A stretch of 64,000 nt of DNA, from NCBI GenBank assembly GCA_963666285.1, contig OY762711.1, one strand, 5' to 3'. Position 1 is the stretch's first letter; the number at the start of each line of letters is the position of its first letter. A program made the translations under genes and the position numbers. The notes under the pieces were generated by a model, which searched no databases, had not been told where the DNA came from, and saw only the letters and a program-made list of their open reading frames with translations. This document shows, piece after piece, positions 9,977-29,703 of the stretch. Source of the DNA: Sedimentisphaerales bacterium (GTDB lineage: Bacteria; Planctomycetota; Phycisphaerae; Sedimentisphaerales; SM23-30).

Positions 9977-10002
9977 ACATTCCCAGGCATGCATTATATT
10001 TG
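9977..10002. repeat. 26-bp direct repeat, identical copy at 24291-24316
   Basis: ACATTCCCAGGCATGCATTATATTTG at both positions, each at the edge of a gene module. Confidence 0.85.
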
Positions 10003-10033
10003 AATAAACTCAACGGTTAACATAAGCATAAAA

Positions 10034-11038
10034 TCACCGAGGTTCAATATACTTAATCAACTCTTCACATTTTGCATTACTAAAATCTAAATTACTGCTA
10101 ATTGAATATAAAGCATATAGTGACGGGTCAGTGAATGGCTTTTTCAAATCCAAAATATTCGACATGGTCGATATAATCCAACCACAAAGTATCCCCACCC
10201 ACATAGGCAAATAAATAGTTCTAAAATGTTTCTCAGGCATATACCGCTTCGCTATCATACGATAATAACCATCTATACTTACATTCTCCGACTCCAACAC
10301 ATTAAAGGCCTGACCATTGGCCTGGCAAAGCGAAACAGCAGCAAATATTGCTCGGGCTAGATAATCAACATGCACCAACGGCCAGCGATTTTTCCCTTTC
10401 CATTTACCAAAATGCAATATAATAGGACTTTTTCTAAGAAAATCAACCGTACGTTTGGTTAATGTTGGATCATCATCACCCCAAACCGCAGCAGGACGAA
10501 CTATACAATACTTATCCTTCGGCATATGTAATTCTATCCATTTTTCAGCAAGTATCTTATACTTCGGGTAAAAATTCTTCGCCTTATCATCAAAAGCAAG
10601 CTCTGACTCACCTTCTCCCGAAAAATCCCGCATGCCGTACACATCAGTTGTCGATATAAAGACAAACTTACCAACCTCGTTTTCCAGGCAGATTTTTACT
10701 AAATGCTGAATTGACTCATAGTTGGTTTTTCGAAAATGCACTTCCCTACCAACATCAGATGCACGCCCGGCACAATGCACAATTGCAGTTAACGGAACAT
10801 TAGCATCAGTCATACATTTTACAACCACTTCATGCATTGAATCATAGCTGCAAATGTCGCCAGACAATAAACTGACATTCCCTTTTCTTTCTAATCCATC
10901 AAGCCAGTCTGGAATATGCTGATGCGTTAACGCGTATACATACCAGCCGCGTTTAACAAACTCCAAAACAGCATGAGAACCAATAAAACCACCGGCACCA
11001 GTTACAAGCACAACCTTATCAGAACGTCTTCCAATCAC
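10034..11038 (-). CDS. Extended SDR, NAD-dependent epimerase/3-beta-HSD-like reductase
   Basis: VLVTGAGGFIG, HCAG, STTDVYG, YPKYK (YxxxK). Confidence 0.85.
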   Translation of the reverse strand: MIGRRSDKVVLVTGAGGFIGSHAVLEFVKRGWYVYALTHQHIPDWLDGLERKGNVSLLSGDICSYDSMHEVVVKCMTDANVPLTAIVHCAGRASDVGREVHFRKTNYESIQHLVKICLENEVGKFVFISTTDVYGMRDFSGEGESELAFDDKAKNFYPKYKILAEKWIELHMPKDKYCIVRPAAVWGDDDPTLTKRTVDFLRKSPIILHFGKWKGKNRWPLVHVDYLARAIFAAVSLCQANGQAFNVLESENVSIDGYYRMIAKRYMPEKHFRTIYLPMWVGILCGWIISTMSNILDLKKPFTDPSLYALYSISSNLDFSNAKCEELIKYIEPR

Positions 11039-11039
11039 T

Positions 11040-12296
11040 TTAGATTACCCTGTATTTCTTACCTGTTTCAATAATAATATCGGCAGCTCTACTTAACTGC
11101 TCTTTACTAAAACTACTCATTACACATATTCGCACACGAGCTTCCTTGTGCCTTACTGCAGGATAACTAACTATATTTGTATACACACCATCCTCAAATA
11201 ATTGCCTGTGAAATAACGCTAATTTCTCATCATCTCCTATTATAAGAGGAATTATACCGGAATTGCTTACACCAATTTCAAATCCTGCTTTTTGCAGAAT
11301 AGCCTTAAGGAAATAAATGTTTTCCCAGAGCCTGCTACGACCAGCCTTATCTTCACTAAGTAATTTAAATACCTCGACAAGGCCTGCAGCAATTGGTGCA
11401 GGTAAAGCAGTAGAAAAGAAATACGAACGAACATAAATTCTCAAATAATCTATAATCTCTTTTTTACCCGCACAATACCCACCGAGACCAGCAGGAGCCT
11501 TACTTAACATACCCACATGCATATCCACTTTATCCATAACACCATAATACTCAGCAGTTCCCCTGCCGGTAGGGCCAACTACTCCTATGCCATGAGCATC
11601 ATCAACCATCAAACGACAACGATATTCTCCTGCCAGCTCTGCAATTTCATCCAGCCTGGCCATATCACCATGCATAGAAAAGACACCATCGGTAACAATA
11701 AGTTTACCGCCATTATTACTGTCGCATTTTTCCAATATACGCCTCAAACAGCGAATATTACCATGAGGATATATCTTTATTCCTGCCCCTGAAAGCATTG
11801 CCCCATCAAATATTGATGCATGATTAGCAGAATCGTTAATTATAATATCACTCTTGCCGCACATAGCTGATATTACGCCCACATTAGTACCATAACCAGA
11901 TGGAAATACAATCGCATCCTCAGAACTATAAAAGTCTGCTATCTGTCCCTCTAACTGCTCGTGCAAATCCGTCAGACCGGCATAAAGAGAAACTGCACCC
12001 ATACCATAACCATATTTATCTATCGCTTCTTTTGCGGCTTTGATTACAACTGGATGACTATTCAGATTAAGGTATGAATTAGAACCAAGCATATAGACTT
12101 CTCTCTTACCACCCTTCTGCTCAATTTCCACTTCCGGCCGAGCATACGAACTAACTACATGACCTAAACCATCAAGTAAACCTTCCGGAGTTTCTCTCAG
12201 GCACCTTGCCAGTTCATATGCCTTATAGAATATATCATTATTTGCCACTTCGACAAAATCTTCAAAACTTTTCTTTTCAACCGTAGTATTCTTCAT
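11040..12296 (-). CDS. PLP-dependent alpha-oxoamine synthase (serine palmitoyltransferase/BioF/KBL family, SPT-like)
   Basis: GSNSYLNL, NHASIFDG, DGVFSMHGD, DDAHGIG, GMLSKAPAG (PLP Lys). Confidence 0.85.
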   Translation of the reverse strand: MKNTTVEKKSFEDFVEVANNDIFYKAYELARCLRETPEGLLDGLGHVVSSYARPEVEIEQKGGKREVYMLGSNSYLNLNSHPVVIKAAKEAIDKYGYGMGAVSLYAGLTDLHEQLEGQIADFYSSEDAIVFPSGYGTNVGVISAMCGKSDIIINDSANHASIFDGAMLSGAGIKIYPHGNIRCLRRILEKCDSNNGGKLIVTDGVFSMHGDMARLDEIAELAGEYRCRLMVDDAHGIGVVGPTGRGTAEYYGVMDKVDMHVGMLSKAPAGLGGYCAGKKEIIDYLRIYVRSYFFSTALPAPIAAGLVEVFKLLSEDKAGRSRLWENIYFLKAILQKAGFEIGVSNSGIIPLIIGDDEKLALFHRQLFEDGVYTNIVSYPAVRHKEARVRICVMSSFSKEQLSRAADIIIETGKKYRVI

Positions 12297-12350
12297 TTAC
12301 ACACCTCTCAATCCTCAATCATTCCATCTAAAATATAATGTACACGGTAT

Positions 12351-13547
12351 TTACTGACAATAACATTGCAACATTGACTTGCTATCACAATTAACAGCAC
12401 ACAAATTACAATTTGTACATTTAGACTTTTTCCAATTATTTTCCGCAATTTTACTAACAATATCCGGCTCGCAGATAAACGGCCGACACATACTAATAAT
12501 CGGAAGCTTAAAATCATTAACAATCTTTTGAATACTTTCAAGCGACCGTATTCCGCCAACAGCAAATACCGGCATGGAAGTAGATTCACTAATTTCTCTG
12601 GCTGCTGCCAGGTTATAATTCTCACTAAATGGTATAAAATGTTGCAGATAACTTTTTAACCTGAATCTTCGCCACACAGCCCGGATAATACCTGGCATTT
12701 TATTAAACAAAGGATTTACTTCAAAGACTTTACCAACAGGACAACCTCCCCTGAAAATATTCATTGCATATTCCATCGTGCCATAGCTGATCTCAACAGC
12801 ATCTGCTAATCCCTCTAATTGCTTAACCGTTTGTATTGTATCGGAAACTCTTAGCCCTCTATCATCACTATGGCTTAATTTAACCAGCACCGGATAACTT
12901 TCATCACATCTTTCCTTTATTTTACGTAATATTTCACAAAGCAGTAAACTGCGTTTACCCCACCTGTCATTCCTGTTGTTAGTATAAGGCGACAAAAACT
13001 GGTGTATCAGATATCCGTGAGCTGCATGAACCTGAATACCATCAAAACCTGCAATCTTGGCTCGACTTGCAGCCCTGGCAAAATCATCGATTATGGCTGA
13101 GATTTCAGCATCTGCCAGCATTCTCACTTTTTGCCGAAAATAACTGCACCTTTTACTACCGGCCCCTACAACTCCACAATTACTCACACTACTTAATGTC
13201 TGCCGACCAGTGTGAGCAATCTGCATTATCATTTTAACCTCAGGATACTCCCGCTTAACTTCACTGATTACTTTTTGCCAGGCCGTACAATGTCCTTCCG
13301 AAGCAATTCCAGCCTGATACCGCTGCATAGCTCGCCCCTGCCGACTGACATAACAAAAACCTGTAGCAATCGCACCAACACCACCGGCAGAAAGTCGCTT
13401 ATACAAATCAGCAAGCTTCTGAGATACTATTCCATCACTATCTGCCATGCCCTCATAAGTGGCTGATCGCATAAAACGGTTATCAACAGTAAGACTACCA
13501 AGCTTAACCTGTGTAAATAATAATTCCTTATTTGAACACACGATCAA
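12351..13547 (-). CDS. NADH:flavin oxidoreductase (old yellow enzyme family) with C-terminal Cys motif
   Basis: NRFMRSATYE, QIAHTGRQ, HAAHGYLIHQFLSP, CTNCNLC. Confidence 0.9.
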   Translation of the reverse strand: MIVCSNKELLFTQVKLGSLTVDNRFMRSATYEGMADSDGIVSQKLADLYKRLSAGGVGAIATGFCYVSRQGRAMQRYQAGIASEGHCTAWQKVISEVKREYPEVKMIMQIAHTGRQTLSSVSNCGVVGAGSKRCSYFRQKVRMLADAEISAIIDDFARAASRAKIAGFDGIQVHAAHGYLIHQFLSPYTNNRNDRWGKRSLLLCEILRKIKERCDESYPVLVKLSHSDDRGLRVSDTIQTVKQLEGLADAVEISYGTMEYAMNIFRGGCPVGKVFEVNPLFNKMPGIIRAVWRRFRLKSYLQHFIPFSENYNLAAAREISESTSMPVFAVGGIRSLESIQKIVNDFKLPIISMCRPFICEPDIVSKIAENNWKKSKCTNCNLCAVNCDSKSMLQCYCQ

Positions 13548-14490
13548 CCAACTCCAAAATCATGTTAATATATTCAGCCTTGTTAGTTATTTCTCTTGCA
13601 CAAGGCGGAATACTTTTAAGCTTTGAAAAATTACCGTTAGTATTAAAAAATATTCCATGATCGCTAGATTGTTTCACTCTTCCGATCCTGACTGAATCCA
13701 TTTCAGGCATCACCCCAACCGGTAAAGTAAACATCAACTCATATTCTCCAGCTCCGCCAAACAAAAATGCCTGCGGTGCGACCCCATTTTCTTTACAAAA
13801 TACCAATACTTCCTTATCAATGGGCAGTTCATCAGTCTGAATAGAAAATTCCAAATCAGGATTATTACCTGCAAGCGTCCATAATGAATCAATAAAACCA
13901 CCACTGGTATCAATACAACCCAATGCGTTTTTCCTGATATATTCGGCTTCGATCTTTCGCAATTCAAAAGCAGGAACCGGTTTCTCCAGCAAAGCTGCCA
14001 GGTTCGCATCACATAAACTTCCGGTAACCCATAACTCCTGCTCAATCAAAGGTAATTTTCGAGATAAATATTTCTCACCATCCAGCTCTCCAATAGCCGT
14101 TGCAGTATACCGCCAATTTGCGCCGAATCCCAGATCTCCACCTATAAGGCAGCACCCGGCATTCTCCAATACTCTACTAACCCCAACTGATAATTCGGTG
14201 GAAAATTCAACATTACCGCCCTTAGACAGCACAATTGCATGAATATAATATTTTGGAATTGCACCACAGGCATACAGATCGCTGAGAACAGCAATTGCCA
14301 TATTACTCCCTAACACAGCAGCCCCAGGATCGCCGAACATATCTTCATCGGAAAACTCATCCATTGTAACCGCAATATTGCCGCCAGATACTTTTACAAT
14401 TTCCGCATCACATTCAAAAGATTTATTCAGCTGATCATCACTGCGATCGAACTGGCCAAGTATATTCTCAATTATTGCTTGTTCACGCAT
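13528..14490 (-). CDS. Divergent ThiL-like kinase (PurM/AIRS fold)
   Basis: AVLSDLYACGA, LIGGD, VTGSL, IDTSGG and GGAGEYEL correspond to ThiL motifs with substitutions. Confidence 0.7.
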   Translation of the reverse strand: MREQAIIENILGQFDRSDDQLNKSFECDAEIVKVSGGNIAVTMDEFSDEDMFGDPGAAVLGSNMAIAVLSDLYACGAIPKYYIHAIVLSKGGNVEFSTELSVGVSRVLENAGCCLIGGDLGFGANWRYTATAIGELDGEKYLSRKLPLIEQELWVTGSLCDANLAALLEKPVPAFELRKIEAEYIRKNALGCIDTSGGFIDSLWTLAGNNPDLEFSIQTDELPIDKEVLVFCKENGVAPQAFLFGGAGEYELMFTLPVGVMPEMDSVRIGRVKQSSDHGIFFNTNGNFSKLKSIPPCAREITNKAEYINMILELVDRVFK

Positions 14491-15400
14491 ATTCTATCCC
14501 TAACAGTTCGATTGCCCCCGGAACGATTTTCGCTTTAACAGGTAAATACCCCTTACTATCTCCATCAAATTCAACCTTTACTGAACCTGACCCATACACT
14601 TCAAGTTTCACAAACTCACTTAACCAGAGTTTTCCTTCTACCTCCAGCTTCTTAAGCGTAAACAAATCTCCTTTATAAAACTCTGGCAGAAGTTTCAACA
14701 ACCCCATTTTCCCTTTTGCCATTATCGCTAAAACATAAGCTTTCCCATCATCAGCAGAGATATCCAAACCAACTTTAATGCCTGAAGCTATATATGGATT
14801 CTTTATTATCATTATGTGAATACATGATTTTAAACTCTGCTTTTCCCCATCAACCATTACATCCAGATCATGTGGCTTATTCACTAGCAATGCTTTTATC
14901 AAACCGAATAATGTACCAAGTCTGTCACCAAAATATTTCCTGTACTTATTAGAAAAATCTGCAACATCTGACCCTAAACCAATATTTGAACTGCAGCCAA
15001 AATACCCTGTTGCGGCTTTACCGCTTTTATCTTTATATTCAATCTGAACCAGGTCAATCTTACTGCTCCTTTCACTCAAAATCACATCCACAGCCTTACC
15101 TGGCTCAACAGGCAAATTATGAAATTTGCAGAAATCAGGACTTGTGCCAGAATATAAAACTCCCATAATGCGGTTCTTTTCTCTCTGCATCACACCATTT
15201 ATGACCTCATTTATCATCCCATCACCGCCAACCGCAACTGCAATTTCCTCATTTGCCGCGGCAATCTCTGTAGCATGCCCTGGATATTCCGTTTCCATCT
15301 GACCAAAATCAACTTTAGATTTTCGCAATCTATCCAACATCACCGGCCAGAGCTTTCTCCCTTTGCCGAATCTTGAATGTGAACACATTATAAGCAGCAT
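14483..15400 (-). CDS. Diacylglycerol/sphingosine kinase family (YegS/DgkB-like)
   Basis: TEYPGHA, AVGGDGMINEVING, GTSPDF, EFDGD. Confidence 0.88.
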   Translation of the reverse strand: MLLIMCSHSRFGKGRKLWPVMLDRLRKSKVDFGQMETEYPGHATEIAAANEEIAVAVGGDGMINEVINGVMQREKNRIMGVLYSGTSPDFCKFHNLPVEPGKAVDVILSERSSKIDLVQIEYKDKSGKAATGYFGCSSNIGLGSDVADFSNKYRKYFGDRLGTLFGLIKALLVNKPHDLDVMVDGEKQSLKSCIHIMIIKNPYIASGIKVGLDISADDGKAYVLAIMAKGKMGLLKLLPEFYKGDLFTLKKLEVEGKLWLSEFVKLEVYGSGSVKVEFDGDSKGYLPVKAKIVPGAIELLGIEYA

Positions 15401-16704
15401 TATTTCCCACCATTCATATTTCTACGGTATATCCCAAGTTTCTTATAAAGCTTAGTCTCCTTACCCCTATCCCATTTCCCAACCAATTCCCTGGTATATT
15501 TCCAGGGTACAGGAGTGTGTGTAAGACCATACTTTTCAACAAGCCCGGCAATCCCCTCAGCCTGGCTGCAGCAGAGCCAATCTTCACATGGATAAGGGAA
15601 ACAACTCCTCATACGATCAAAAACCTCATCAAAACCCTCTTCGACGATATTTCCAAATGAAATATTCAGGAATTCACATGGCTGCATTTCACCTGCGGCA
15701 TTAATATAGAATCTGTCAATTGCTCCGGCAGTACAACCAAGGCCATCTGGCCGTTCTTCAAACACCTGGGCAGCCAGGGCAGGAAACTCCTTTTTGCATG
15801 ATGAGTTATATTCTTTATGCTTATCTCGAACTGCCTCAATATGCCTTTTATGCTGAACAATATCTTTACCTGAAGCCAGCCACTTCCCTGCTGGTTTTGG
15901 ATGGATAAGCTGCACAAACTGAACATCAAGTTTTTTGGCAAGCTCCATCAACCTGTCCAACTTACCACAATCCAGCTGTTGGGCTGTTAAAACACTATTA
16001 ATTGCTATCACAAGCCCAAGTTCTCTTGCCATACCAATTGCGTTACATGCTGCATTAAAAGAACCTTCAACGCCGGTAAACAAATCATGCTCAACTGCAT
16101 CAGGTGAATGTATAGAAACCATCAGTCCAAAAAGTCCTTTACCCTGCAACTCCAGAAGTTGCTCCCTGCTCACTGACCTGCCATGAGTATTTACCCATAC
16201 CTCACTTTTGTCGTCAAAAACTTCTAAAAGCTTACTCAAACGGTCAAATAGCAAAAATGGCTCCCCACCTTCAATATCAAACATAGCTACACCCTTTTCA
16301 CGCAGCTTTATTGCGACTTGCTGAAGATGCTCAAGAGCAATATCATTACCTCCATCTTTTCGCTGATAACAATGTGGACAATGGAAATCGCATGCACGCG
16401 TCATACTGTAAACAATTGTTACCGGTCGTGCCGGGCTATGGATAAGCTTTGATTCGATTGCATGAAAGAAAGCACCGGTTGGATATGCTGGCAAATATAA
16501 ATGAATTTTATAACCACTGGGGACTTTCACAGGCTTATCCGGCCAGAAAGTTTTTAACAATATTGATGCACGCCATAAAAAACTGGGATATCTTTTGGGA
16601 TTAACCCTAAACATGTAGTAAAACATCACATGCAATGCTATTCGAACATATAGCATTAGTTTTGGCACCCCGGTTATTTGCCTGGTCTGGTTAGTATATT
16701 TCAT
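15400..16704 (-). CDS. Radical SAM protein with SPASM/twitch-like C-terminal domain
   Basis: CDFHCPHC (CxxxCxxC), GGEP, GCTAG..YINAAGEMQPC. Confidence 0.9.
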   Translation of the reverse strand: MKYTNQTRQITGVPKLMLYVRIALHVMFYYMFRVNPKRYPSFLWRASILLKTFWPDKPVKVPSGYKIHLYLPAYPTGAFFHAIESKLIHSPARPVTIVYSMTRACDFHCPHCYQRKDGGNDIALEHLQQVAIKLREKGVAMFDIEGGEPFLLFDRLSKLLEVFDDKSEVWVNTHGRSVSREQLLELQGKGLFGLMVSIHSPDAVEHDLFTGVEGSFNAACNAIGMARELGLVIAINSVLTAQQLDCGKLDRLMELAKKLDVQFVQLIHPKPAGKWLASGKDIVQHKRHIEAVRDKHKEYNSSCKKEFPALAAQVFEERPDGLGCTAGAIDRFYINAAGEMQPCEFLNISFGNIVEEGFDEVFDRMRSCFPYPCEDWLCCSQAEGIAGLVEKYGLTHTPVPWKYTRELVGKWDRGKETKLYKKLGIYRRNMNGGK

Positions 16705-16707
16705 TTT

Positions 16708-17694
16708 CTACGCCTTCGTATCACCATAATGACTGAAGAAAAACTGGATCAATATATAACTTGCAATCATAAGATATAATGCCAGAGTCCCATCAAAAAT
16801 TGCTATCAGGGAAACCTGCCCAGCAACACATGCCTGTATATTTGTTACAAGACTGAAATACGTTTTTTGCCCGTACGGGTTAGTAAAAAACAGATATGCT
16901 GTCCAACATTGCAAAAACAATGTCACCAGACAGCAAAACAAAAATGTCTTCTGATACAGAATTGACTCCACTGGAAGCCAATCTATTGTTATAAAAAACA
17001 CTAATGCTATCGCTGATATAAATGCTCCAATAATCCCGGCATAGCGACCTATATTTATACCATACCGTACAATAAAAGTCTTTTTCCCCGCAGCTTTATC
17101 GCCTTGATAATCTTTGAAATATGTATAATACGTCATTACCGCATTTAATATTGCTACTAATATTAAACCTGTTATCCTGTTACTTGTGAAAAATGGGTCC
17201 AATAGCGGACCACACGCCAGGAAACCATACGCCGTACACATGGATATCATAATACCAAAAACAATATTTCCTGTCAGGCTCCACGCTTTTGCATATTCAT
17301 ATAAAACATTTAACAATATACCTAAAACTGCCGGAATAATTGCCCAGGGATTCAATAGCCAACTTATAAATATCATAAATATAAGAAAAAAAATAGTTAC
17401 TACTAATGCACATTTGGGATCCAACTCACCTGTCACCATAGGCCTGTTAGGAGCATTGATTTTATCTTCTTCCAATCCAAGATAATCATTAATGATCTGA
17501 TTAATTCCCCAGCTCAAAAAAAGCATAGCTAATATCAGCATCAGCCTTTCATTAGATACAGCTCCATCCACCTTAAAATTATAAAAAGACACACCCACCC
17601 AACCTGCTATCCCTGTAACAAAAGCATAGTATAATCGCATTGACTTTATGTACGCCTTTGTAAAACCCATAACTTTTTTCAATTCTAACTCCAT
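16708..17694 (-). CDS. UbiA-family intramembrane prenyltransferase (DGGGP/chlorophyll-synthase-like motifs)
   Basis: About 9 TM segments; NDYLGLEEDKINAPNRP and KDYQGDKAAGKKT. Start at ATG 17694 with a GAGGA RBS. Confidence 0.85.
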   Translation of the reverse strand: MELELKKVMGFTKAYIKSMRLYYAFVTGIAGWVGVSFYNFKVDGAVSNERLMLILAMLFLSWGINQIINDYLGLEEDKINAPNRPMVTGELDPKCALVVTIFFLIFMIFISWLLNPWAIIPAVLGILLNVLYEYAKAWSLTGNIVFGIMISMCTAYGFLACGPLLDPFFTSNRITGLILVAILNAVMTYYTYFKDYQGDKAAGKKTFIVRYGINIGRYAGIIGAFISAIALVFFITIDWLPVESILYQKTFLFCCLVTLFLQCWTAYLFFTNPYGQKTYFSLVTNIQACVAGQVSLIAIFDGTLALYLMIASYILIQFFFSHYGDTKA

Positions 17695-17749
17695 TTTTCT
17701 ATCCTCAAATTCCAAAAAACTCTCATAAAAACACCAAAATAATATCCAA

Positions 17750-18322
17750 CTATAGATTCAGTATGTTTTTATCCAACATTTTCTCTCTCATCGAATCACC
17801 AAAAAGCTCTAAGTGTTTGCCTATTGTTATCATTGTCCCAATCCCAATCAAACGCCATGCTGTCGATTCTGCAAAATCTGTAACATCCTGCTTATTATTC
17901 CCATAATAACTTAAAATCATATCAACCAGGTACCTGTGAATACGATTATACATTTCTTGCAGCACTTTTTTTATATCCGGCTCATCTACCTCATTTAAGC
18001 CGGAAAAGATAATCATATAATGCCCCAATTCGGCAAAATGGGTTGATTCATAATCAAACAGTACTTCAAGCGGCTTGTTCTCCTGAAGCGTTTTGGATAT
18101 TTGCCTTTCCCAAATCTCAAGAATATTATCCGTCAGATATTTCACAGAAGCGACAAACATTGCCTTTTTGTCTTCCCATAATCGATAAAGTATCGCTTCC
18201 TTCACCCCACATTCATTGGCAATCGCAGACGTAGTCGCACGGCGATATCCAAGACACGCAAAAGCCTTAGCCACTAATGGAAGCATTTCTTTACGCTTTT
18301 CATATCTTTTATCTGTTTTCAT
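17750..18322 (-). CDS. TetR family transcriptional regulator
   Basis: N-terminal HTH AFACLGYRRATTSAIANECGVKEAILYRLWEDK. Confidence 0.9.
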   Translation of the reverse strand: MKTDKRYEKRKEMLPLVAKAFACLGYRRATTSAIANECGVKEAILYRLWEDKKAMFVASVKYLTDNILEIWERQISKTLQENKPLEVLFDYESTHFAELGHYMIIFSGLNEVDEPDIKKVLQEMYNRIHRYLVDMILSYYGNNKQDVTDFAESTAWRLIGIGTMITIGKHLELFGDSMREKMLDKNILNL

Positions 18323-18339
18323 TCTTAAATCCTCAAAAC

Positions 18340-18372
18340 GTTAGCAAACACTAACTGTTAGTAAATGCTAAC
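18340..18372. promoter_or_regulatory. Tandem palindromic operator, probably for the TetR protein
   Basis: GTTAG-CAAACA-CTAAC (18340-18355) and GTTAG-TAAATG-CTAAC (18357-18372), directly upstream of the tetR start. Confidence 0.65.
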
Positions 18373-18423
18373 ACTATTATCAGCAGAATGCAAAATAATT
18401 CTCAAAAAAATATGAGAGAAACC

Positions 18424-18782: not shown

Positions 18783-19454
18783 TTATCTTTTGGTAGCTAA
18801 AGCAGCTTCTGCCACCCTTTGACCTAATTGAACAGCAGTTTTGATACCAAACTCATCCTTAGTAATATCATCATTGTAGGCATTAACCAGGGTGGCTCCC
18901 TGGTGAGCGCCAGGCTTTCCACCTACAATCATAGCTTCATGGCAAAGAAGTGCCGCTTGTATTTGCTGAATACCCATTTCCTGCCCGCCATTCCTATAAG
19001 CACCGACAGTCAATGCACCAACCGGCACATTGGCTAACTTCAGCTCAGGTTTTCGTAAAACCGCTATACGCTCTAAAAATGACATACAAACTGAACTGAT
19101 ATTCCGAAAATATATAGGAGAGCCAATTATCATGCCATCCGGGTATGGGTCTTTAAGTTTAGGCAGAACAAGATCTGTAAAATGATCTTGCTGAAATTTA
19201 CCAGTGCTGTTCCAGCCAGAGAAATACAATTCACCCAAATCTATCAATTCAACTTGAATCTGGTTTGATATTTTACTAGCCGCATCCAAGGCAACCTGCA
19301 CTGCTGTTGCAGTTGTCTTACCTTTTCTTGGACTGCAACTAATACCGACAATTCTAACCTTACCTTCTGTTTCATCTTTTGCCTGAGCTTGTGAAGCAAA
19401 CGCAACGACTCCACCAACAGCTGCACTTTTAGCTATAAAACTTCGTCTATCCAT
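18783..19454 (-). CDS. Tat-exported flavodoxin-like / NADPH-dependent FMN reductase family protein
   Basis: MDRRSFIAK twin-arginine signal; SCSPRKGKT, GSPIYF, GAYRNGGQE. Confidence 0.82.
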   Translation of the reverse strand: MDRRSFIAKSAAVGGVVAFASQAQAKDETEGKVRIVGISCSPRKGKTTATAVQVALDAASKISNQIQVELIDLGELYFSGWNSTGKFQQDHFTDLVLPKLKDPYPDGMIIGSPIYFRNISSVCMSFLERIAVLRKPELKLANVPVGALTVGAYRNGGQEMGIQQIQAALLCHEAMIVGGKPGAHQGATLVNAYNDDITKDEFGIKTAVQLGQRVAEAALATKR

Positions 19455-19487
19455 AATAATACTCCTGATGTAAAAATGATTATGCAA

Positions 19488-20186
19488 TTAAGGAGCTGTA
19501 TAAATCAGCCACACACCTCCTATAAGGACTAGAACACCACATATTTTCTTCAATATAACTGAACCTTTGGATTTATCATTCCAATTCATATACCGCTGAA
19601 CGATTTCAGTAAACGTTCCCGCAAAAATAATCACAGAACAATGCCCTACACCATAGGTAAATAATAAAAGAATACCATATGAGAGGTTAGTAGAAGAAAG
19701 CTTAAATGTTACACCAAGCATTGGAGCCATATATGCAAAAGTACACGGCCCAAGCGCAATTCCAAACACAAGACCAAGGATAAATGCAGCAAGCAACCCT
19801 TTCTTCTTCATACCTATCTGCCCTGGACCGGATAACGGAATATTTATGACTTCAAGCAGATGCAGCCCCACAACAAAGAATATCAATGCTACAAAATAAT
19901 TGCCATATTGACCTATATCACCCATCATCCTGCCAGCGGCGGCAGTTATTGCACCTATAGCACCGATTGTAATCAAAATCCCAACTGAAAACAGGGTTGA
20001 TATCCAGAAAGCCCGCCTGGTAGATATTCGACCCTGTTCATCAATAAATCCAATTATCAGTGGAATACTGGCAAGATGACACGGACTTAGTACAATGCTT
20101 AGCACACCCCATATAAAAGAGGCAAGCAATGCGATAAACCAGGCTCCTTCAACGGCATTTGTTAGCTCGGTAAATAATTCCTGCAT
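19488..20186 (-). CDS. ccdA: CcdA/DsbD-type transmembrane thiol-disulfide electron transporter
   Basis: LSPCHL and LGPCTF motifs; 6 TM segments. Confidence 0.85.
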   Translation of the reverse strand: MQELFTELTNAVEGAWFIALLASFIWGVLSIVLSPCHLASIPLIIGFIDEQGRISTRRAFWISTLFSVGILITIGAIGAITAAAGRMMGDIGQYGNYFVALIFFVVGLHLLEVINIPLSGPGQIGMKKKGLLAAFILGLVFGIALGPCTFAYMAPMLGVTFKLSSTNLSYGILLLFTYGVGHCSVIIFAGTFTEIVQRYMNWNDKSKGSVILKKICGVLVLIGGVWLIYTAP

Positions 20187-20187
20187 A

Positions 20188-21108
20188 CTATTTTATTTCC
20201 AAAACATCAATCTTATTAATAATATCTTCTTCTGTATAAAAACCACTATGCCGGAAAACTTCTTTTCCCATATCGTCAAAAATAATTTGTGTTGGTATTG
20301 ACTTTACTCCATACCTTGCCGACAAAACCTGTTGCTCTTTTGCATTAATATATACTATATTCAGCTGATCTTTATATTTATTTGTCAGTGCGTCACGTAT
20401 CGGAGCCATCTTATCCGGACCGCAACAGCTGGCAGCACTAAAAATAGCAATAGTAGCTTTCTCACTGCTTCTTGCCATATCCAGTAAATTATTTTGCGAG
20501 ATTAAGGCCTGCTCCTTAAGCCAATTACCTGCAATAGAAATATCATATTTAAGACCGATGTTCTTTATATATTCAGCAACAAGAGATAGCTTTTTTTCTT
20601 GCAAAACATAAGATTTAATTTGCTCTTTTACTGCTGACAGTGGTGTCCCATTAAACACACTGACGTTTTCTTCATAAAACTTTTCAACTTCCTGGTCATT
20701 AACAGAGGTGTCGGCAAGCATATTTTCCAAATAGGCAGATATACTATTATTATCATTTTTAGACTGTATGTTATTTTTAGCATTTTCTTCCAGGGCAATA
20801 TCAGCCAGGATCTGTTTACCTGCATACTGCTCGAGAACAAACAGTAAATTTTCTTCCAACTCTGCACGAACCAGGCCGGGTTGAGATGTGATATAGTCCT
20901 TCAAGTCCTTTTCATTAATCTCAATATTTTTATACTTCAGAATAGTTCCATTTTTCAGATCTAATATTTTAGCATAGGTCAAAACACCTGTAGTTAAACT
21001 GGGATATACTTCATTTACAATATTTGACTTAACCGTAACTCTTTCTGCTGCAATTGACAGACTCCCAATTAACAGGAATATAAACATATAATAGCAATTA
21101 GTTTTCAT
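20188..21108 (-). CDS. Secreted protein with SurA/PrsA-like helical region and C-terminal thioredoxin-like domain (CC instead of CxxC)
   Basis: Signal peptide; VNDQEVEKFYEEN..VKEQIKSYV; AASCCGPDKM..YGVKSIPTQIIFD..RHSGF. Confidence 0.7.
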   Translation of the reverse strand: MKTNCYYMFIFLLIGSLSIAAERVTVKSNIVNEVYPSLTTGVLTYAKILDLKNGTILKYKNIEINEKDLKDYITSQPGLVRAELEENLLFVLEQYAGKQILADIALEENAKNNIQSKNDNNSISAYLENMLADTSVNDQEVEKFYEENVSVFNGTPLSAVKEQIKSYVLQEKKLSLVAEYIKNIGLKYDISIAGNWLKEQALISQNNLLDMARSSEKATIAIFSAASCCGPDKMAPIRDALTNKYKDQLNIVYINAKEQQVLSARYGVKSIPTQIIFDDMGKEVFRHSGFYTEEDIINKIDVLEIK

Positions 21109-21538
21109 TTTTGTCGCCTTTCTCAGCATCAACTCCAAATTCTTTCCACTTACCTAAGATGTCTTCTTTTGAGAAAAATCCTTCATGCCTGAAAATCTCT
21201 TTTCCAGAGGCATCAATAAATATTTGTGTTGGGATCAGGTTTATACCATACTTCTCTTTTTCACCAGGATTTTCCCAGACATCAATAAAATTCACATTGA
21301 ATGAATCTTTACATTCCACCTTCAGCTCTTCCAGAATCGGAGCCATCATTTTACATGGAATGCATTTGCCTGCACCAAGATCAATTAGAGTTGGTAAGTC
21401 AGAATTGATATTGCCTGCAATTTGCTTTTCCTGGCCAGAGTCTGTAACAGGCAAATCTTTTTTGTCTTGCTTTGCCAAAAAAGCTATCGCCACTACTACC
21501 AACAAAGCTACTACAATAATTATATTGGTTTTTTTCAT
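21098..21538 (-). CDS. Membrane-anchored thioredoxin family protein
   Basis: GAGKCIPCKMM, IPTQIF, N-terminal TM segment. Confidence 0.9.
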   Translation of the reverse strand: MKKTNIIIVVALLVVVAIAFLAKQDKKDLPVTDSGQEKQIAGNINSDLPTLIDLGAGKCIPCKMMAPILEELKVECKDSFNVNFIDVWENPGEKEKYGINLIPTQIFIDASGKEIFRHEGFFSKEDILGKWKEFGVDAEKGDKNEN

Positions 21539-21627
21539 TATTATAACTCCTTAAAAAATGCATTATCACAGAACAAATTCATACTGCCTCAGCAATTATC
21601 ATAATAGTATAAATCTGTTAAGCAATC

Positions 21628-22002
21628 TTATTGCAGCATTTCCTTTGCTTTAGAAACAACTTTTCCAACATTCTCTTCATTTGCAGGGCTATTGCCTTTT
21701 TCAAGGCCTAAATCTGCCAGCTGAAGATGATCAAACTTGCAGAAACCTGCCTGCTCTAAAGAATTTTTCACACAATTCAGAGGACAACCATCAATAGCCA
21801 GAACCTGCTCTGCCGCTTCAGTAGTTTTCATAATGCCACTGACACGTCCACCAATTCCAGCTAGACAGAACATTTTGCCGGAACCATCTTTGGTTAACTT
21901 TCGTGCTGCCTGATCCGACACCGCTCCTACATCGGCTGCTCCGGAGCAGGCGAAAATCAACTTTGTGCCACCGCTGCATACACATGATTTTTCTGTACTC
22001 AT
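21628..22002 (-). CDS. DGC-domain putative zinc-binding protein
   Basis: FACSGAADVG, MFCLAGIGG, AIDGCPLNC. Confidence 0.85.
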   Translation of the reverse strand: MSTEKSCVCSGGTKLIFACSGAADVGAVSDQAARKLTKDGSGKMFCLAGIGGRVSGIMKTTEAAEQVLAIDGCPLNCVKNSLEQAGFCKFDHLQLADLGLEKGNSPANEENVGKVVSKAKEMLQ

Positions 22003-22043
22003 AACAATTCCTTTTTATCGTCTTAGAAAATTATCAATATTAA

Positions 22044-22277
22044 TTAAGCTAACATAGCCTTAATATCATCAGCAGACAATACTTTCCCTGCCGATTTAAC
22101 TTCACCATCAATTGCAATCGCAGGTGTTACCATTACACCCATTGCCATTATATCATTAAGTTGAGTTACCTTTTCAATCTCAGCCTCAATTCCAAGTTCA
22201 CTAACCGCAGCTTTTGCATTACCTGCAAGTTTTTCGCATTTGGCACATCCTGTACCTAGTATTTGTATTTTTTTCAT
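22044..22277 (-). CDS. Small redox-active disulfide protein (MTH895/TM0996 glutaredoxin-like)
   Basis: MKKIQILGTGCAKC..GVMVTPAIAIDG. Confidence 0.9.
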   Translation of the reverse strand: MKKIQILGTGCAKCEKLAGNAKAAVSELGIEAEIEKVTQLNDIMAMGVMVTPAIAIDGEVKSAGKVLSADDIKAMLA

Positions 22278-22290
22278 TGTTATTTCTCCA

Positions 22291-23763
22291 TTAAAATACG
22301 GTTCCAAATATTATTCCTGAAATTGTTGCCATTACAATAACCAGAGTTACAAACACGACTGTTTTTTGCGTTCCCATCACAGAACGAATTACCAGCATAT
22401 TTGGCAAACTTAATGCCGGTCCGGCCAGCAATAAAGCTAATGCCGGTCCTTTACCCATGCCGGCACCAATTAAGCCTTGCAAAATCGGTACTTCAGTTAA
22501 AGTAGCAAAATACATAAAAGCACCGGCTACCGAAGCAAATAGATTTGCCCAAATGGAATTACCGCCGACTGCCTTAGCAACCCATTCGGGCGGGATAAGC
22601 CCCTCATGGTTAGGCCTTCCAAGCAATAAACCGGCAACAACAACACCTATAAGAAGTAATGGCAATATCTGTTTTGCAAATGTCCACGTTGAACTGAACC
22701 ATTCCTCCGGTTCACCTTTAGTTGTACTGGTAGCCCAGGAAAGCCCCATTACGGCAATTGAAAATGGGATCATTACCATCATCCCATCCATCGGTAATAT
22801 AAATGCTGAAATCACAGTTGGTATTGCAGTCAAGAGTATTTTCCACCATGGGATTGCAAACCAGGCAGTTAAAACAACTGCCAGAATCATTCCAAATCCA
22901 CTGGCAACTAACCATTTATGACTCCAGATTGAAGTCCATGCCCCAGAAACGGGTTGTTTTTCAATAATATTACTAACTGATAATTCTATCTCCTGACCTT
23001 TTTCATTCCCATCTATAAGCTTAACAACATAAGAGCCATCTTGTTCTGAATTATGTTCCGGAGCCTTGATTACGGCTGCCCTGATAGTATTCCCATCTTT
23101 CATCTTAAAACTGAAATCGTTTGGCGCACCCCAGTTTGCAAAAACAAGTACTCCTACCATAACAGCAAAAAACACTGCATTTTGCCATAATGGACGAGAT
23201 ACTTCCGGCTCTGGCATTACTGCCTGCTGATTAGCTTTGGCCATTTCTTCTTTTCTATAAATTAAATGCATTATCAAACCAATAATGACACTGAAACTTA
23301 TTGCGCCAACAGCCCTGGCTATACCAAGCTCCAAACCAAGAATTCTTGCAGTAAGAATAATTGCTAAAACATTGATCGCCGGGCCGGAGTAGAGAAATGC
23401 AGTTGCAGGACCTAAACCAGCTCCCATTTTGTATATTCCGGCAAAAAGAGGAAGAATAGTACAAGAGCATACAGCAAGGATCGAACCTGATACAGACGCA
23501 ACCGCATAAGCAAGAACTTTATTTGCTTTTGCTCCCAGGTATTTCATAACTGAAGCCTGGCTGACAAAAACAGATATTGCTCCTGCAATAAAAAATGCCG
23601 GGACAAGACATAGCAAAACATGCTCTTGGGCATACCACTTAACAAGATGAAGTGACTCCATTATCGCATTATCGAAACGTTTCCAGCCTACTGGCAGATA
23701 AAAACATCCAAGAAATATAAGAACTATCCAAAGAAGTTTTTTCCATTCACTTTTCCAAAACAT
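22291..23763 (-). CDS. ArsP-like (DUF318) permease
   Basis: LAVCSCTILP, FLYSGPAIN, YFATLTEVP, LLAGPALSLP; multi-TM. Confidence 0.85.
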   Translation of the reverse strand: MFWKSEWKKLLWIVLIFLGCFYLPVGWKRFDNAIMESLHLVKWYAQEHVLLCLVPAFFIAGAISVFVSQASVMKYLGAKANKVLAYAVASVSGSILAVCSCTILPLFAGIYKMGAGLGPATAFLYSGPAINVLAIILTARILGLELGIARAVGAISFSVIIGLIMHLIYRKEEMAKANQQAVMPEPEVSRPLWQNAVFFAVMVGVLVFANWGAPNDFSFKMKDGNTIRAAVIKAPEHNSEQDGSYVVKLIDGNEKGQEIELSVSNIIEKQPVSGAWTSIWSHKWLVASGFGMILAVVLTAWFAIPWWKILLTAIPTVISAFILPMDGMMVMIPFSIAVMGLSWATSTTKGEPEEWFSSTWTFAKQILPLLLIGVVVAGLLLGRPNHEGLIPPEWVAKAVGGNSIWANLFASVAGAFMYFATLTEVPILQGLIGAGMGKGPALALLLAGPALSLPNMLVIRSVMGTQKTVVFVTLVIVMATISGIIFGTVF

Positions 23764-23820
23764 AATAATATCCTCACTGGGTTATTTGCACATATTACCA
23801 AGTGTTATCCTAAAAAAAGA

Positions 23821-24141
23821 TTATTGAAGCAATGCAGCATGAGCTTGTGCCTGCATTTTAATAACTGACTCAATACAATCCATAAATTTCAATAAGCATG
23901 GTACTTTTAATGAATAGTAAACCTGTTTGCCTCTCTTTTCATCCTCAACAACACCGGCCTGCTTCAAAATTGAAAGATGTTTGGAAACTGTAGAGAAATC
24001 AGCCTGTATAACCTCTGCAAACTCACAAACACATTTCTCACCTTTTGAAAGCTGCTCTGTCATCCACAAGCGGGTGGGATGAGCTAAAGCCTTTAATACC
24101 TTTGCCTTAGCTTCATATAATTTTTTATCATTTTCAGTCAT
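23821..24141 (-). CDS. ArsR/SmtB family metalloregulator
   Basis: KALAHPTRL, EKCVCE, STVSKHLSILK. Confidence 0.92.
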   Translation of the reverse strand: MTENDKKLYEAKAKVLKALAHPTRLWMTEQLSKGEKCVCEFAEVIQADFSTVSKHLSILKQAGVVEDEKRGKQVYYSLKVPCLLKFMDCIESVIKMQAQAHAALLQ

Positions 24142-24593: not shown

Positions 24594-26018
24594 CTATATA
24601 TTTTCGATTGCTTTCCTGCTCTTTGCCGCACTTTGCAGCACACAAGGCCCGCCAACGCAGCCGCCGGTACAACTCATGACCTCAATGAAATTACCGGGAG
24701 CCTTTCCCTTGGCATACGCTTTCAAAAGAGCAATACTCTTTTTATCCAGCCCGTCAATACAAACCGGATTCAGAGCTGTTTCCCCGGCATAACTGCCCGC
24801 AACTGCGGAAGACACCCCGGAACTGATGGCAAATTTGCGTGCCGCAGCTGATGCCGTACCGTCTACCTGGGCAATATCCGGCATCTCGTCCAAAAATATT
24901 TCGGTCGCCACCAGCATAGCACCCAGCTCTTCAAAGGTTATCACATAATCAACATCTTCCAGTTCTGTTCCTTCCTTACGCTTGGCAAGACATGGGCCAA
25001 TAAACACGGTTTTAACATCGGGATTGTCAGCCTTAACCTTCCGGGCCGTAAAAGCCAATGGTGAAGGTGTATCTGATACATTGCCGCATATTTCCGGAAT
25101 ATGCTTTTTCGCAAGTTGAACATAAGATGGACAGCATGAAGTAGTCATAAACTTTTGACCTTCTGCCAGCTTATGGGCCAGCTCTTCTGCTTCGTGAGCA
25201 ATAGTTTCATCCGCTCCCTCTGCAACTTGCACAACAGAAGTAAATCCAAGTACATGCATGGCGGCAGTAAGCTGATTCCAATTAGCCTCAAACTGCCCTT
25301 CCATTGCCGGTGCCACCATAGCAGTCACATCTGTACCCTTAGTTATTTCAGCAAGGACATGAACCACCTGTGAGCACTCCATTATAGCTCCAAACGGACA
25401 GGCGTTTATACACTTGCCGCAATAGATACATTTCTCATCATCTATCACCTTCTTGCCATCCGGTCCGCTGGCTATAGCACCAACCGGGCAAGACTCTTCA
25501 CATGGAACGGGAATACGTACTACCGCATGAAAAGAACACGCACTCTGACATTTACCGCAATTGATACATTTGTCTGTATCGATTTTGGCCTTCCCGTTTA
25601 TTACGCTGACAGCATCCTTAGGACATACCATTGTACACGGTCGAGCGGCACATCCGCGGCATGCATCAGTAATATGATAATGCGCATCGGGACATGAACT
25701 GCACGCTACATCCAGAACGGTAAGAAATCTGCTGTTTGATTTTCTCTTGAGCGTCTGCCCGAGATATTCCTTGATTGTGGTCAGTTCATCAACTTCGTCT
25801 TCGACCGCTATCCCCAGCGAAGCCATACAACGATATTTGATCACCGCACGATCTTTATAAACACAACAGCGGGTAGTATTATTACGTAAAGGCCGCATCT
25901 CCAGCGGTATCCTGTCAAGGTCAGTTGAATCCTTGGGGCGGGTTACCGCATTTATGATACGAATCATAATCTCCCGGCAAATACGTCTGGCATTGTTATA
26001 TTTAGCTTCAGGCATCAT
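24594..26018 (-). CDS. Monomeric [FeFe]-hydrogenase (group B-like) with ferredoxin domains
   Basis: H-cluster motifs TTSCCP, GPCLAKRKE, EVMSCTGGCVGG; several CxxCxxCxxxC motifs. Confidence 0.9.
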   Translation of the reverse strand: MMPEAKYNNARRICREIMIRIINAVTRPKDSTDLDRIPLEMRPLRNNTTRCCVYKDRAVIKYRCMASLGIAVEDEVDELTTIKEYLGQTLKRKSNSRFLTVLDVACSSCPDAHYHITDACRGCAARPCTMVCPKDAVSVINGKAKIDTDKCINCGKCQSACSFHAVVRIPVPCEESCPVGAIASGPDGKKVIDDEKCIYCGKCINACPFGAIMECSQVVHVLAEITKGTDVTAMVAPAMEGQFEANWNQLTAAMHVLGFTSVVQVAEGADETIAHEAEELAHKLAEGQKFMTTSCCPSYVQLAKKHIPEICGNVSDTPSPLAFTARKVKADNPDVKTVFIGPCLAKRKEGTELEDVDYVITFEELGAMLVATEIFLDEMPDIAQVDGTASAAARKFAISSGVSSAVAGSYAGETALNPVCIDGLDKKSIALLKAYAKGKAPGNFIEVMSCTGGCVGGPCVLQSAAKSRKAIENI

Positions 26019-26289
26019 TCAGGCCCTCCGGCAGATCCAGCATCTCAGCGATTACTTCCATAACCTTTTCCGGGGTGGCATTACCGATCGGGACGGAATT
26101 TATGCGGACATAAGGTGCCCCGCTGAATTTACCTTTCCGGCATAAGCCAAGGCATCTGGACGCTGTAACCTCAACAAAATCCTTCCATTCTGCAGGCAGG
26201 CTTTCTTCAAAAGATTCAAACTGAACACTGCCCAAAACAAAGCAGGTTGTTCCTGCACATATCTCTATTTGTATTTTTTTGTTATGCAT
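26008..26289 (-). CDS. Thioredoxin-like [2Fe-2S] ferredoxin (NuoE/HfsA-like)
   Basis: ICAGTTCFVLG..RCLGLC..GAPYVRIN. Confidence 0.85.
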   Translation of the reverse strand: MHNKKIQIEICAGTTCFVLGSVQFESFEESLPAEWKDFVEVTASRCLGLCRKGKFSGAPYVRINSVPIGNATPEKVMEVIAEMLDLPEGLNDA

Positions 26290-26310
26290 GATTATTTTTC
26301 CATTTGATTG

Positions 26311-27480
26311 TCAAATGTATTCTATTCGCACTTCTTTCAGATACTTGTTTTCTAAAATTTCTGCTATCTTTTTGATAATATTTCGCCTTATGTCAAGATC
26401 AGCCGGCAAGGTCGGATCCTGGTGGGCCTCGTTTACCTTCGTACCAACACAAAAATCAATAATATCGTGATTCTTGATATGCTCGATCATCTCTGATGCC
26501 GGAGAACCATCTTCACCTCCGCGCTCGAGAAGAGAACATACCCTGGTAAGTGTAAGGATACCTTCTGTTACCAGGTCGGCACCTTTCATTACAGAAACTG
26601 CCGGCAAACCGGCACGAGATCTCAGTTCTGTCTTTATATCAAGTTTCAGCTCTCTTGCCAGGATATTCGATGTCGTGCCGCCGCAGACTATTTTTGAGCC
26701 CTGATAACCGGTATATTTAGAGGCCCAGTAGCTGTCCTGACTCTCACGGAACGGAGGGCCTGTCATTATCATAAGCTTGCGCGGTCTGCGATAGTAAACC
26801 ACCGCACATGACATATCATCATGCGGCAGATTACCAGGCTCATAACGCAACGCCTGCTTGATCACCCGGTTTACCAGAACCCTGGCTGACAATTCCGGAT
26901 TTTCTGCCAGCTGGTCTTTTACAAATTCTACACAGCCTTTCCTGCGCCAGCCCAGTTTATGCTCTTCCGAACCAAGACCAGCCTGGGTTATTCCATCAGA
27001 AAACATAATTATCCGGTCGCCGGGGCGGGTTTTAAACCTGCTTATCTTTATTGAACGGTTCTGCCATTCTTCAAACTTCAGTTCACGGGTATCACATTCA
27101 ACTTCCTGGCCGTCACGGATAAAAATAAATGATGGGTTACCCATCTCTACAACACGCGTTTCACCGTTCAAGGTTGAATCGATAATCGTATATGTTGCAT
27201 AGCTTATTTTTCGTTCCAGGCAAACCGGCAAGGCATCCATCATAACACCAAGAGCCTTGGGCAGCTCGATTTCAGATGCGATAAACTTCTCGGCCATTGT
27301 CGCGGTCATCTTAGACAATATTGCAGCCTTTACACCACTGCCCAGGCCATCAGACAGCACAACAATATTCCTCTGCTGCTGACTGTATTTGCTGGCAATA
27401 ACAGAATCTCCGCAAATACCCTGCCGATCTTTCATGCGGCTTAGCCATTCAACTTCAACAAATATAGGTGCGCTCATCAT
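26311..27480 (-). CDS. SpoIIE/PP2C-family phosphatase (HfsC-like)
   Basis: CGD, VLSDGLGSG, FSDGITQ, HDDMSC, VCGGTT, LVTEGILTL. Confidence 0.88.
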   Translation of the reverse strand: MMSAPIFVEVEWLSRMKDRQGICGDSVIASKYSQQQRNIVVLSDGLGSGVKAAILSKMTATMAEKFIASEIELPKALGVMMDALPVCLERKISYATYTIIDSTLNGETRVVEMGNPSFIFIRDGQEVECDTRELKFEEWQNRSIKISRFKTRPGDRIIMFSDGITQAGLGSEEHKLGWRRKGCVEFVKDQLAENPELSARVLVNRVIKQALRYEPGNLPHDDMSCAVVYYRRPRKLMIMTGPPFRESQDSYWASKYTGYQGSKIVCGGTTSNILARELKLDIKTELRSRAGLPAVSVMKGADLVTEGILTLTRVCSLLERGGEDGSPASEMIEHIKNHDIIDFCVGTKVNEAHQDPTLPADLDIRRNIIKKIAEILENKYLKEVRIEYI

Positions 27481-29204: not shown

Positions 29205-29344
29205 AATCTATATCTCACCTTAACTGCTTGTTAAACGTACTTATACTGATCAATAAACAACTGTATCAATATAAAACAAAATTCACATCACACAAAAATG
29301 CCAGAAATAAGGTAACAGAGTGAGACTATCTACTTTCTACTCTA

Positions 29345-29584
29345 TCATTCCATCATTGAATTCAGGACATCAAGCAGCGTTCCGCTATCTACCCCAAACA
29401 AGGTTTTGGCATCCACGGTTATTACCGGCCCCTTCGCACAATTCGATTCGCAGCGGCTGCCTACCAGTTCGATTTCAGCTTCCAGCTTGTTATCACTGAT
29501 AAATGACTCTATCAACTCCAGGTTATGTTCGTTGCCCCTGGAAAAACATGAGCTGCCCATACATATTGTAATTTTATGTTTCAT
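29345..29584 (-). CDS. Thioredoxin-like [2Fe-2S] ferredoxin (HfsA-like)
   Basis: ITICMGSSCFSRGN..RCESNCAKGPVITVD. Confidence 0.88.
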   Translation of the reverse strand: MKHKITICMGSSCFSRGNEHNLELIESFISDNKLEAEIELVGSRCESNCAKGPVITVDAKTLFGVDSGTLLDVLNSMME

Positions 29585-29606
29585 TGGAAAAGTAAAGGTA
29601 AATGTA

Positions 29607-29647
29607 TGTTTATGCCCTATACAGGTTAACTGTATAAGGCATAAACA
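29607..29647 (-). terminator. Strong hairpin between adhE and the hfsA-like gene
   Basis: TGTTTATGCC-CTATACAG-gttaa-CTGTATAA-GGCATAAACA; followed on the minus strand by a pyrimidine-rich tract. Confidence 0.55.
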
Positions 29648-29703
29648 AGCTACACAAGTAATTAATAGAAGTAATCCGTATTATTTTTCAGAACCAGTTA
29701 CAT

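Follow-up and report, generated by a model that had tools for sequence, protein, structure and literature searches.

Parts of several described pathways recur in a seven-gene operon of a Sedimentisphaerales bacterium (assembly GCA_963666285.1, contig OY762711.1), which lies in a window of 64,000 nucleotides, the whole stretch of DNA that was analysed. The bacterial sphingolipid pathway (Spt, AcpR, AasR, CerR, CerS and the ceramide kinase CpgB; PMC11324152) shares with this operon an oxoamine synthase, a reductase and a kinase of the diacylglycerol kinase (DAGK) family. Proteobacterial sphingolipid synthesis is fed by a dedicated acyl carrier protein (ACP) and an acyl-activating enzyme beside Spt (PMC11324152), and an ACP and an acyl-activating ligase are likewise found in variant clusters of the operon. 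The operon differs in that its synthase scores below the cut-offs for serine palmitoyltransferase (SPT), and in that its UbiA-superfamily transferase, its ThiL-like protein and its radical S-adenosylmethionine (SAM) enzyme are absent from the pathway as described. Archaeal digeranylgeranylglyceryl phosphate (DGGGP) synthase (MjDGGGPS), another close known system along with the bacterial pair of geranylgeranylglyceryl phosphate (GGGP) synthase and DGGGP synthase (GGGPS and DGGGPS), is the best sequence match of the operon's UbiA protein, whose partners are instead an oxoamine synthase and two putative kinases. In the two-step activation of prenols by plant VTE5/VTE6 and Sulfolobus GGK/GGPK, an alcohol is converted to a phosphate and then to a diphosphate that feeds a UbiA-family enzyme. 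VTE5 and VTE6 are membrane proteins, and both of these enzyme pairs belong to protein families different from those of the operon's kinases. An earlier sequence-only reading of the DNA had likened the latter to phytol kinase and phytyl-phosphate kinase; that likeness is one of function only, and no gene for a VTE6-type protein, which we take to be a DUF92 member, was found in the genome (0 matches to PF01940).

The operon is real and conserved, and no description of it was found in the literature searched; full-text searches for the gene combination, with subscription journals and supplements outside their coverage, returned either nothing or unrelated papers. Judged by the features compared below, it would be a hybrid of a sphingoid-base module and a DGGGP-synthase step, with component enzymes that fall outside ThiL, DGGGP synthase and SPT. 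A tentative reading, to which we give somewhat less than even chances, is that this conserved operon makes a fatty amino-alcohol of sphingoid type, phosphorylates it twice and uses the diphosphate as the donor of the UbiA enzyme. The operon and the regulator at its head are laid out as follows.

17750..18322, minus strand: TetR-family regulator, operon head here, accessory (TetR_N 34 bits)
16708..17694, minus strand: UbiA-superfamily membrane transferase, closest to archaeal DGGGP synthase (UbiA 97 bits)
15400..16704, minus strand: radical SAM enzyme with a C-terminal SPASM/twitch-like Cys set
14483..15400, minus strand: soluble DAGK/YegS-family lipid kinase, 305 aa (DAGK_cat 70 bits, and YegS_C)
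13528..14490, minus strand: ThiL-related PurM-fold enzyme of a separate family, 320 aa (AIRS 41 bits)
12351..13547, minus strand: old-yellow-enzyme-family (OYE) ene-reductase with a C-terminal Cys cluster, accessory (Oxidored_FMN 163 bits)
11040..12296, minus strand: pyridoxal phosphate-dependent alpha-oxoamine synthase of the Kbl/SPT/BioF family (H159, D232, H235 and K266 invariant)
10034..11038, minus strand: extended short-chain dehydrogenase/reductase (SDR), 3-beta-HSD/OleD-like (GxxGxxG, S129, Y157 and K161 conserved)

The operon thus runs in the order UbiA, radical SAM, DAGK, ThiL-like, OYE, alpha-oxoamine synthase and SDR, and the successive spacings from TetR to SDR are 55, 3, -1, -8, -20, 54 and 1 bases. 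The UbiA start is the ATG, the start in the open-reading-frame (ORF) list being a TTG at 17715. A contig from a public run, probably that of the source sample, shows 0 differing letters over 10000-18400. Coordinates and domain matches confirm the minus-strand genes and the overlap, of 8 bases, between the DAGK-family and ThiL-like genes, an overlap that had been noted before; the gene list and the domain scan likewise agree that the operon holds no prenyl-diphosphate synthase. The kinases, described earlier as lying beside UbiA, are in the same operon, but the radical SAM gene sits between, so that UbiA is one gene away. The genes grouped earlier do belong together, and the unit also continues to 10034 with three further enzymes.

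A profile built from 55 ThiL-like homologs retrieved 70 genome loci and 77 metagenome loci. Presence was counted only at loci whose contig leaves room for the gene in question; the metagenome loci partly repeat the genome loci, and related loci are non-independent. On this basis, 66 of 66 genome loci and 46 of 47 metagenome loci carry the DAGK gene; radical SAM is found in 60/61 and 30/32, UbiA in 56/57 and 26/28, the oxoamine synthase in 53/56 and 30/30, and the SDR in 45/48 and 24/24. The accessory genes follow with 48/60 and 43/47 for OYE and 2/50 and 0/24 for TetR. The order UbiA, radical SAM, DAGK, ThiL-like is kept in 58 of the 60 genome loci that hold all four. To avoid anchoring on a single gene, a reverse search was performed from the UbiA side and gave 16 regions, of which 5 were contigs found earlier and 4 were incomplete; both kinases were present in 6 of the 7 new loci with room, and the remaining one (L181, 116 bits) holds a distant UbiA on its own. 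The presence counts, which exceed chance, and this search bear out the proposed co-occurrence of both kinases with UbiA. Locus L008 has no UbiA upstream, and its genome, the one genome checked in this respect, carries UbiA and radical SAM on other contigs; genome G730, whose completeness is not given, carries a ThiL-like gene and no UbiA or radical SAM match.

Carriers of the cassette are found in Planctomycetota, Elusimicrobiota, Armatimonadota, Kiritimatiellia, Lentisphaeria, Alphaproteobacteria, Desulfovibrio, Gastranaerophilales, Fibrobacteres and Halobacteroidaceae, and include a cultured organism with a complete genome, Elusimicrobium posterum Dip510 (L053). The distribution is rare and patchy. 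With the centre genomes not counted, the cassette was present in 2 of 60 relatives and in none of 3 genomes of the same genus, in 1 of 400 genomes of the phylum, in 10/200 and 5/150 genomes of two other groups, and in 0/200 and 0/150 genomes of two further groups; a locus is carried by G050, a genome of the same order. Some rearrangements were observed. At L123:14534-15757, UbiA is relocated behind the SDR gene on the opposite strand, with the other six genes in unchanged order; an unrelated small gene is inserted between DAGK and ThiL-like at L011:9133-9492; and an insertion separates UbiA from radical SAM at L098:2045-3159. One small gene inserted in these last two cassettes is presumably HTH antitoxin-like, as judged by eye.

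ThiL is the top-ranked relative of the ThiL-like protein by sequence, profile and fold, and the tree places the ThiL-like family beside ThiL with modest support (94/69). The protein scores 103.9 bits against the thiL model TIGR01379 (cut-off 184), and no cassette copy exceeds this cut-off among the matches listed for 50 genomes. A separate canonical thiL, for which the sequence-only reading had advised a search, is present elsewhere in the same genome (233 bits). Among the carrier genomes, 32 of 50 have a thiL over the cut-off and 18 do not, and thiamine pyrophosphokinase is present in 5 of 5 tested carriers without thiL. The separate thiL, the carrier survey and the thiamine pyrophosphokinase together uphold the claim that the ThiL-like protein is not the housekeeping thiamine monophosphate (TMP) kinase.

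The residues D44, D71, D119, D194 and S196 occur in 118 of 118 ThiL-like sequences and D28 in 116 (2 gaps), positions that match the metal ligands of PaThiL (Asp30/47/75/122/211 and Ser213; PMC13254938); the protein has a PurM fold with the ATP/metal aspartates. ThiL Asp214 bridges the metal to the TMP phosphate (PMC13254938), and 109 of the 134 rows for the wider ThiL-like family retain this residue; DxSDG, too, is retained by most of that family. That the protein keeps its ATP-dependent phosphotransferase residues is thus supported, together with the metal-to-phosphate Asp in the wider family. The motifs quoted earlier are present in the translation (IDTSGG at 193-198, GGAGEYEL at 245-252), but alignment and tree show IDTSGG to be the derived state of one subclade instead of a family signature. 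By alignment, not side-chain superposition, the position of the TMP-binding His54 is M51 in the window and variable across the 118 sequences, and directly before it stands a new invariant acidic pair (E/D49, D50) that could hold an ammonium group. In contrast to ThiL (TIGR01379; PDB 3c9u, 5cc8, 8yku), the family has a helix in place of the ThiL C-terminus and always sits in a lipid-type operon. The retained ATP/metal residues, the loss of the TMP His and the bridging Asp of the wider family fit a monophosphate kinase with a new substrate, and the ThiL-like protein is likely a monophosphate-to-diphosphate kinase that acts on a non-thiamine substrate. The window copy has C160 where 117 of 118 sequences have G, a difference confirmed by contigs.

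The DAGK-family protein consists of DAGK_cat and YegS_C domains with the GGDG motif, as expected for a soluble lipid kinase, and GGDG, GTSPD and ExDGD are invariant among 107 sequences. Its scores against NCBIfam subfamilies are all below the cut-offs; by profile, DgkB is best (112 bits) and SphK1 reaches 35 bits. This enzyme likely performs the first phosphorylation. The window copy has C6/S7 for N/P and M62 where 105 of 107 have T (confirmed by contigs), and the count of substitutions at conserved sites in this copy of the cassette is within the range of the family.

The UbiA protein exceeds the PF01040 cut-off and has the UbiA fold. Its sole sequence match among solved structures is MjDGGGPS (PDB 6m31), followed by chlorophyll synthase when a profile is used, and the fold comparison places ApUbiA, MjDGGGPS and AfUbiA within about 1 Z unit; all DGGGPS cut-offs lie above its score. 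MjDGGGPS requires D66, D70, D180, D183 and D187 (PMC9385802). The window UbiA keeps three of these five catalytic aspartates (D70, D183 and D187) together with N62, whereas D66 is replaced by G73 in motif 1 (ND-YL-G-LE-E-D) and D180 by Y192. Position 73 is G or N in 72 of 72 stand-alone cassette copies with coverage of at least 80%, and G in 120 of 120 best homologs. Other UbiA proteins, by comparison, have D/E there (31 of 31), and the one baseline locus of 32 that is missing from this alignment also shows D. The D180 position is highly variable among other UbiA proteins and less informative. A search of the 97% complete genome for GGGP synthase gave 0 matches (PF01884). IspA- and IspB-like prenyl synthase genes are present in the genome, and the argument drawn earlier from the operon's missing prenyl synthase is therefore weak. 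The window copy has K78 and Q287 where at least 90% of the family has R (confirmed by contigs). A second DGGGPS-like UbiA with intact aspartates lies behind a methyltransferase-like gene at G000:C1:627954-628805 (L161), in a genome with no GGGP synthase found. The distant UbiA of L181 (G499:C66:8865-9761) shows the YFKD motif of the family, together with D at position 73, and the cassette contig of its genome (L183) ends at the DAGK gene. In the radical SAM enzyme, C105/C109/C112 and C324/C343/C378 are invariant. UbiA::radical SAM fusions of 718-725 aa occur in five gut Lentisphaeria loci (L064-L068), which have no OYE between the ThiL-like and synthase genes and several of which carry downstream what we take to be a nitroreductase-like gene.

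Variant clusters bear on the nature of the chain. A different gene order, UbiA-OYE-ACP-synthase-DAGK-ThiL-like-FabF-SDR-radical SAM, can be followed in full at L071, L073, L177, L178 and L179 and in part at L176 and L180. An ACP gene is the neighbour of the oxoamine synthase gene at 7 distinct loci, and FabF-type synthases are encoded at 5. L183 combines DAGK, ThiL-like and radical SAM genes with a fatty acyl-AMP ligase and an ACP-like ORF, and the L173 synthase scores 499 bits against the Bacteroidota-type SPT model NF047600 (cut-off 640), its best by 150. Because these variants add an ACP, FabF, a fatty acyl-AMP ligase or an SPT-like synthase, we infer a fatty, sphingoid-type chain, formed by condensing a long acyl chain with an amino acid. 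In the variant clusters, the alcohol-forming module of the cassette thus has a fatty-acyl basis, which counts in favour of the sequence-only reading. The alpha-oxoamine synthase is likely to join an acyl thioester and an amino acid by condensation, and the SDR likely reduces the ketone to an alcohol. No N-acyltransferase or ceramide synthase (bCerS) is present in the operon, the rest of the genome not having been searched for cerS; this gene is reported in a separate operon (PMC11324152).

In the proposed pathway, the oxoamine synthase would join an acyl-ACP or acyl-CoA to an amino acid, probably serine; the SDR would reduce the ketone, with OYE optionally reducing a double bond; and the DAGK-family and ThiL-like enzymes would generate the monophosphate and the diphosphate, respectively. 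UbiA would then expel pyrophosphate and join the chain to an O or N acceptor. The simplest acceptor would be a second monophosphate molecule, because DGGGP synthase uses a lipid monophosphate acceptor. The radical SAM enzyme may make the donor reactive (allylic) or tailor the product. As an alcohol-forming module, an alcohol kinase, a phosphate kinase and a pyrophosphate-displacing enzyme are inherited together, base, base phosphate, base diphosphate and coupling would be the simplest order; moreover, in a genome with IspA and IspB, a kinase from phosphate to diphosphate would be of little gain unless the donor is other than prenyl.

Several observations weigh against this pathway. Known prenyltransferases make poor use of saturated alkyl diphosphates, which do not ionise as prenyl donors do (PMC9385802), so that the model needs an unproven activation, either by radical SAM and an allylic bond or by a neighbouring amine. 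The window synthase scores 368 bits for the Kbl/BioF subfamily, 340 for SPT and 339 for BioF, all below cut-off. Against the curated SPT models, it reaches 340/640, 305/500 and 245/670 bits, and serine and a long chain are thus not shown for the window enzyme. The DAGK family is closer to DgkB/BmrU than to sphingosine kinase. The window's ThiL-like subclade is devoid of the phosphate-bridging Asp, having Gly at the place of ThiL Asp214 (G197 in 104/118). The Gly of UbiA motif 1 is not universal, since all fused copies (5 of 5) and L173 retain D; those cassettes have an ordinary motif 1, so that pyrophosphate chemistry is ancestral and Gly derived. Finally, a polyprenyl synthase lies directly upstream of the cassette UbiA on the same strand at L035:4701-5762, the only case in 163 loci. 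The lipid-diphosphate donor proposed by the sequence-only reading is partly supported: it gains from the putative non-TMP kinase family of the ThiL-like protein, the UbiA linkage and the fatty variants, but suffers from the poor reactivity of saturated diphosphates, and the DAGK product could equally be the acceptor.

The main rival, which we consider rather unlikely, makes the amino-alcohol monophosphate the acceptor: UbiA would add housekeeping farnesyl or geranylgeranyl diphosphate (FPP/GGPP) to give a prenylated sphingoid lipid, and the ThiL-like enzyme would then make a diphosphate head group. It requires no new donor chemistry, and it draws on the prenyl synthases of the genome, on the L035 neighbour and on the closeness of UbiA to DGGGP synthase, an enzyme that takes a lipid monophosphate as its acceptor. 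A reported grouping of UbiA enzymes according to their acceptors (PMC9385802) also favours this rival. According to the same report, the motif aspartates of MjDGGGPS have a stronger effect on acceptor than on donor binding, so that G73 may reflect a new acceptor. Against it, the ThiL-like enzyme, which no cassette with room lacks, would have no obvious role; lipid diphosphates normally serve as intermediates from which the diphosphate leaves. Of 163 loci, moreover, just 1 has a prenyl synthase nearby.

An improbable alternative is prenol salvage, in which both kinases would act on environmental prenol or phytol to give prenyl or phytyl diphosphate, the acceptor being the unphosphorylated amino-alcohol. 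The donors that UbiA enzymes are known to use are allylic prenyl diphosphates, Sulfolobus (PMC9385802) and plants possess two-step prenol kinases, gut and sediment organisms are among the carriers, and several copies are headed by TetR or MarR regulators. Nevertheless, there is no soluble DAGK-family prenol kinase among the solved relatives, the variant clusters carry their own ACP, FabF and acyl-AMP ligase, and the locus survey revealed no conserved uptake gene beside the cassette. It is distinctly improbable that the ThiL-like protein is a PurM/HypE-type ATP-driven dehydratase or ring-closing ligase acting on a pathway amide or amino-alcohol, given the first rank of ThiL by all three comparisons, the position in the tree (94/69) and the DxSDG retained by most of the wider family. 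A second TMP kinase placed in a lipid operon by chance, in spite of its best family match to thiL and the 18 of 50 carriers without thiL over the cut-off, is scarcely tenable beside the canonical thiL of the same genome (233 bits) and of 32/50 carriers, the thiamine pyrophosphokinase in 5/5 tested carriers without thiL, the lost TMP-binding His and the C-terminus swapped for a helix.

Upstream of TetR, the region 18783-24141 contains an FMN reductase gene (domain scan) and genes that we take to be CcdA-like, thioredoxin-like, permease and ArsR-like. The region 24594-32337 presumably encodes FeFe-hydrogenase-like and PAS/phosphatase proteins, followed by a bifunctional aldehyde/alcohol dehydrogenase, a content that we take to be consistent with a fermentative anaerobe.

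On both leading readings, the operon would represent a lipid pathway and two enzyme activities for which no description was found, namely a ThiL-derived kinase family and a UbiA family with an altered catalytic motif. The gene set can be used for matching unassigned lipids of anaerobic gut and sediment bacteria, and with its seven genes, its pair of soluble kinases and one carrier in culture the system is directly testable. If the donor is non-isoprenoid, the substrate rule of the UbiA superfamily changes. In its fullest form, which is unlikely, the pathway would yield a two-tailed phospholipid with neither glycerol nor an amide, for which one amino-alcohol would supply both tails. A repurposed ThiL would convert some of the monophosphate to the diphosphate, and a UbiA resembling DGGGP synthase would link donor and acceptor by an ether or amine bond, with oxygen-independent activation by radical SAM. 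If true, a UbiA enzyme would for the first time act on a donor derived from a fatty acid, and membrane lipids would have a third route to their second tail besides acylation and prenylation.

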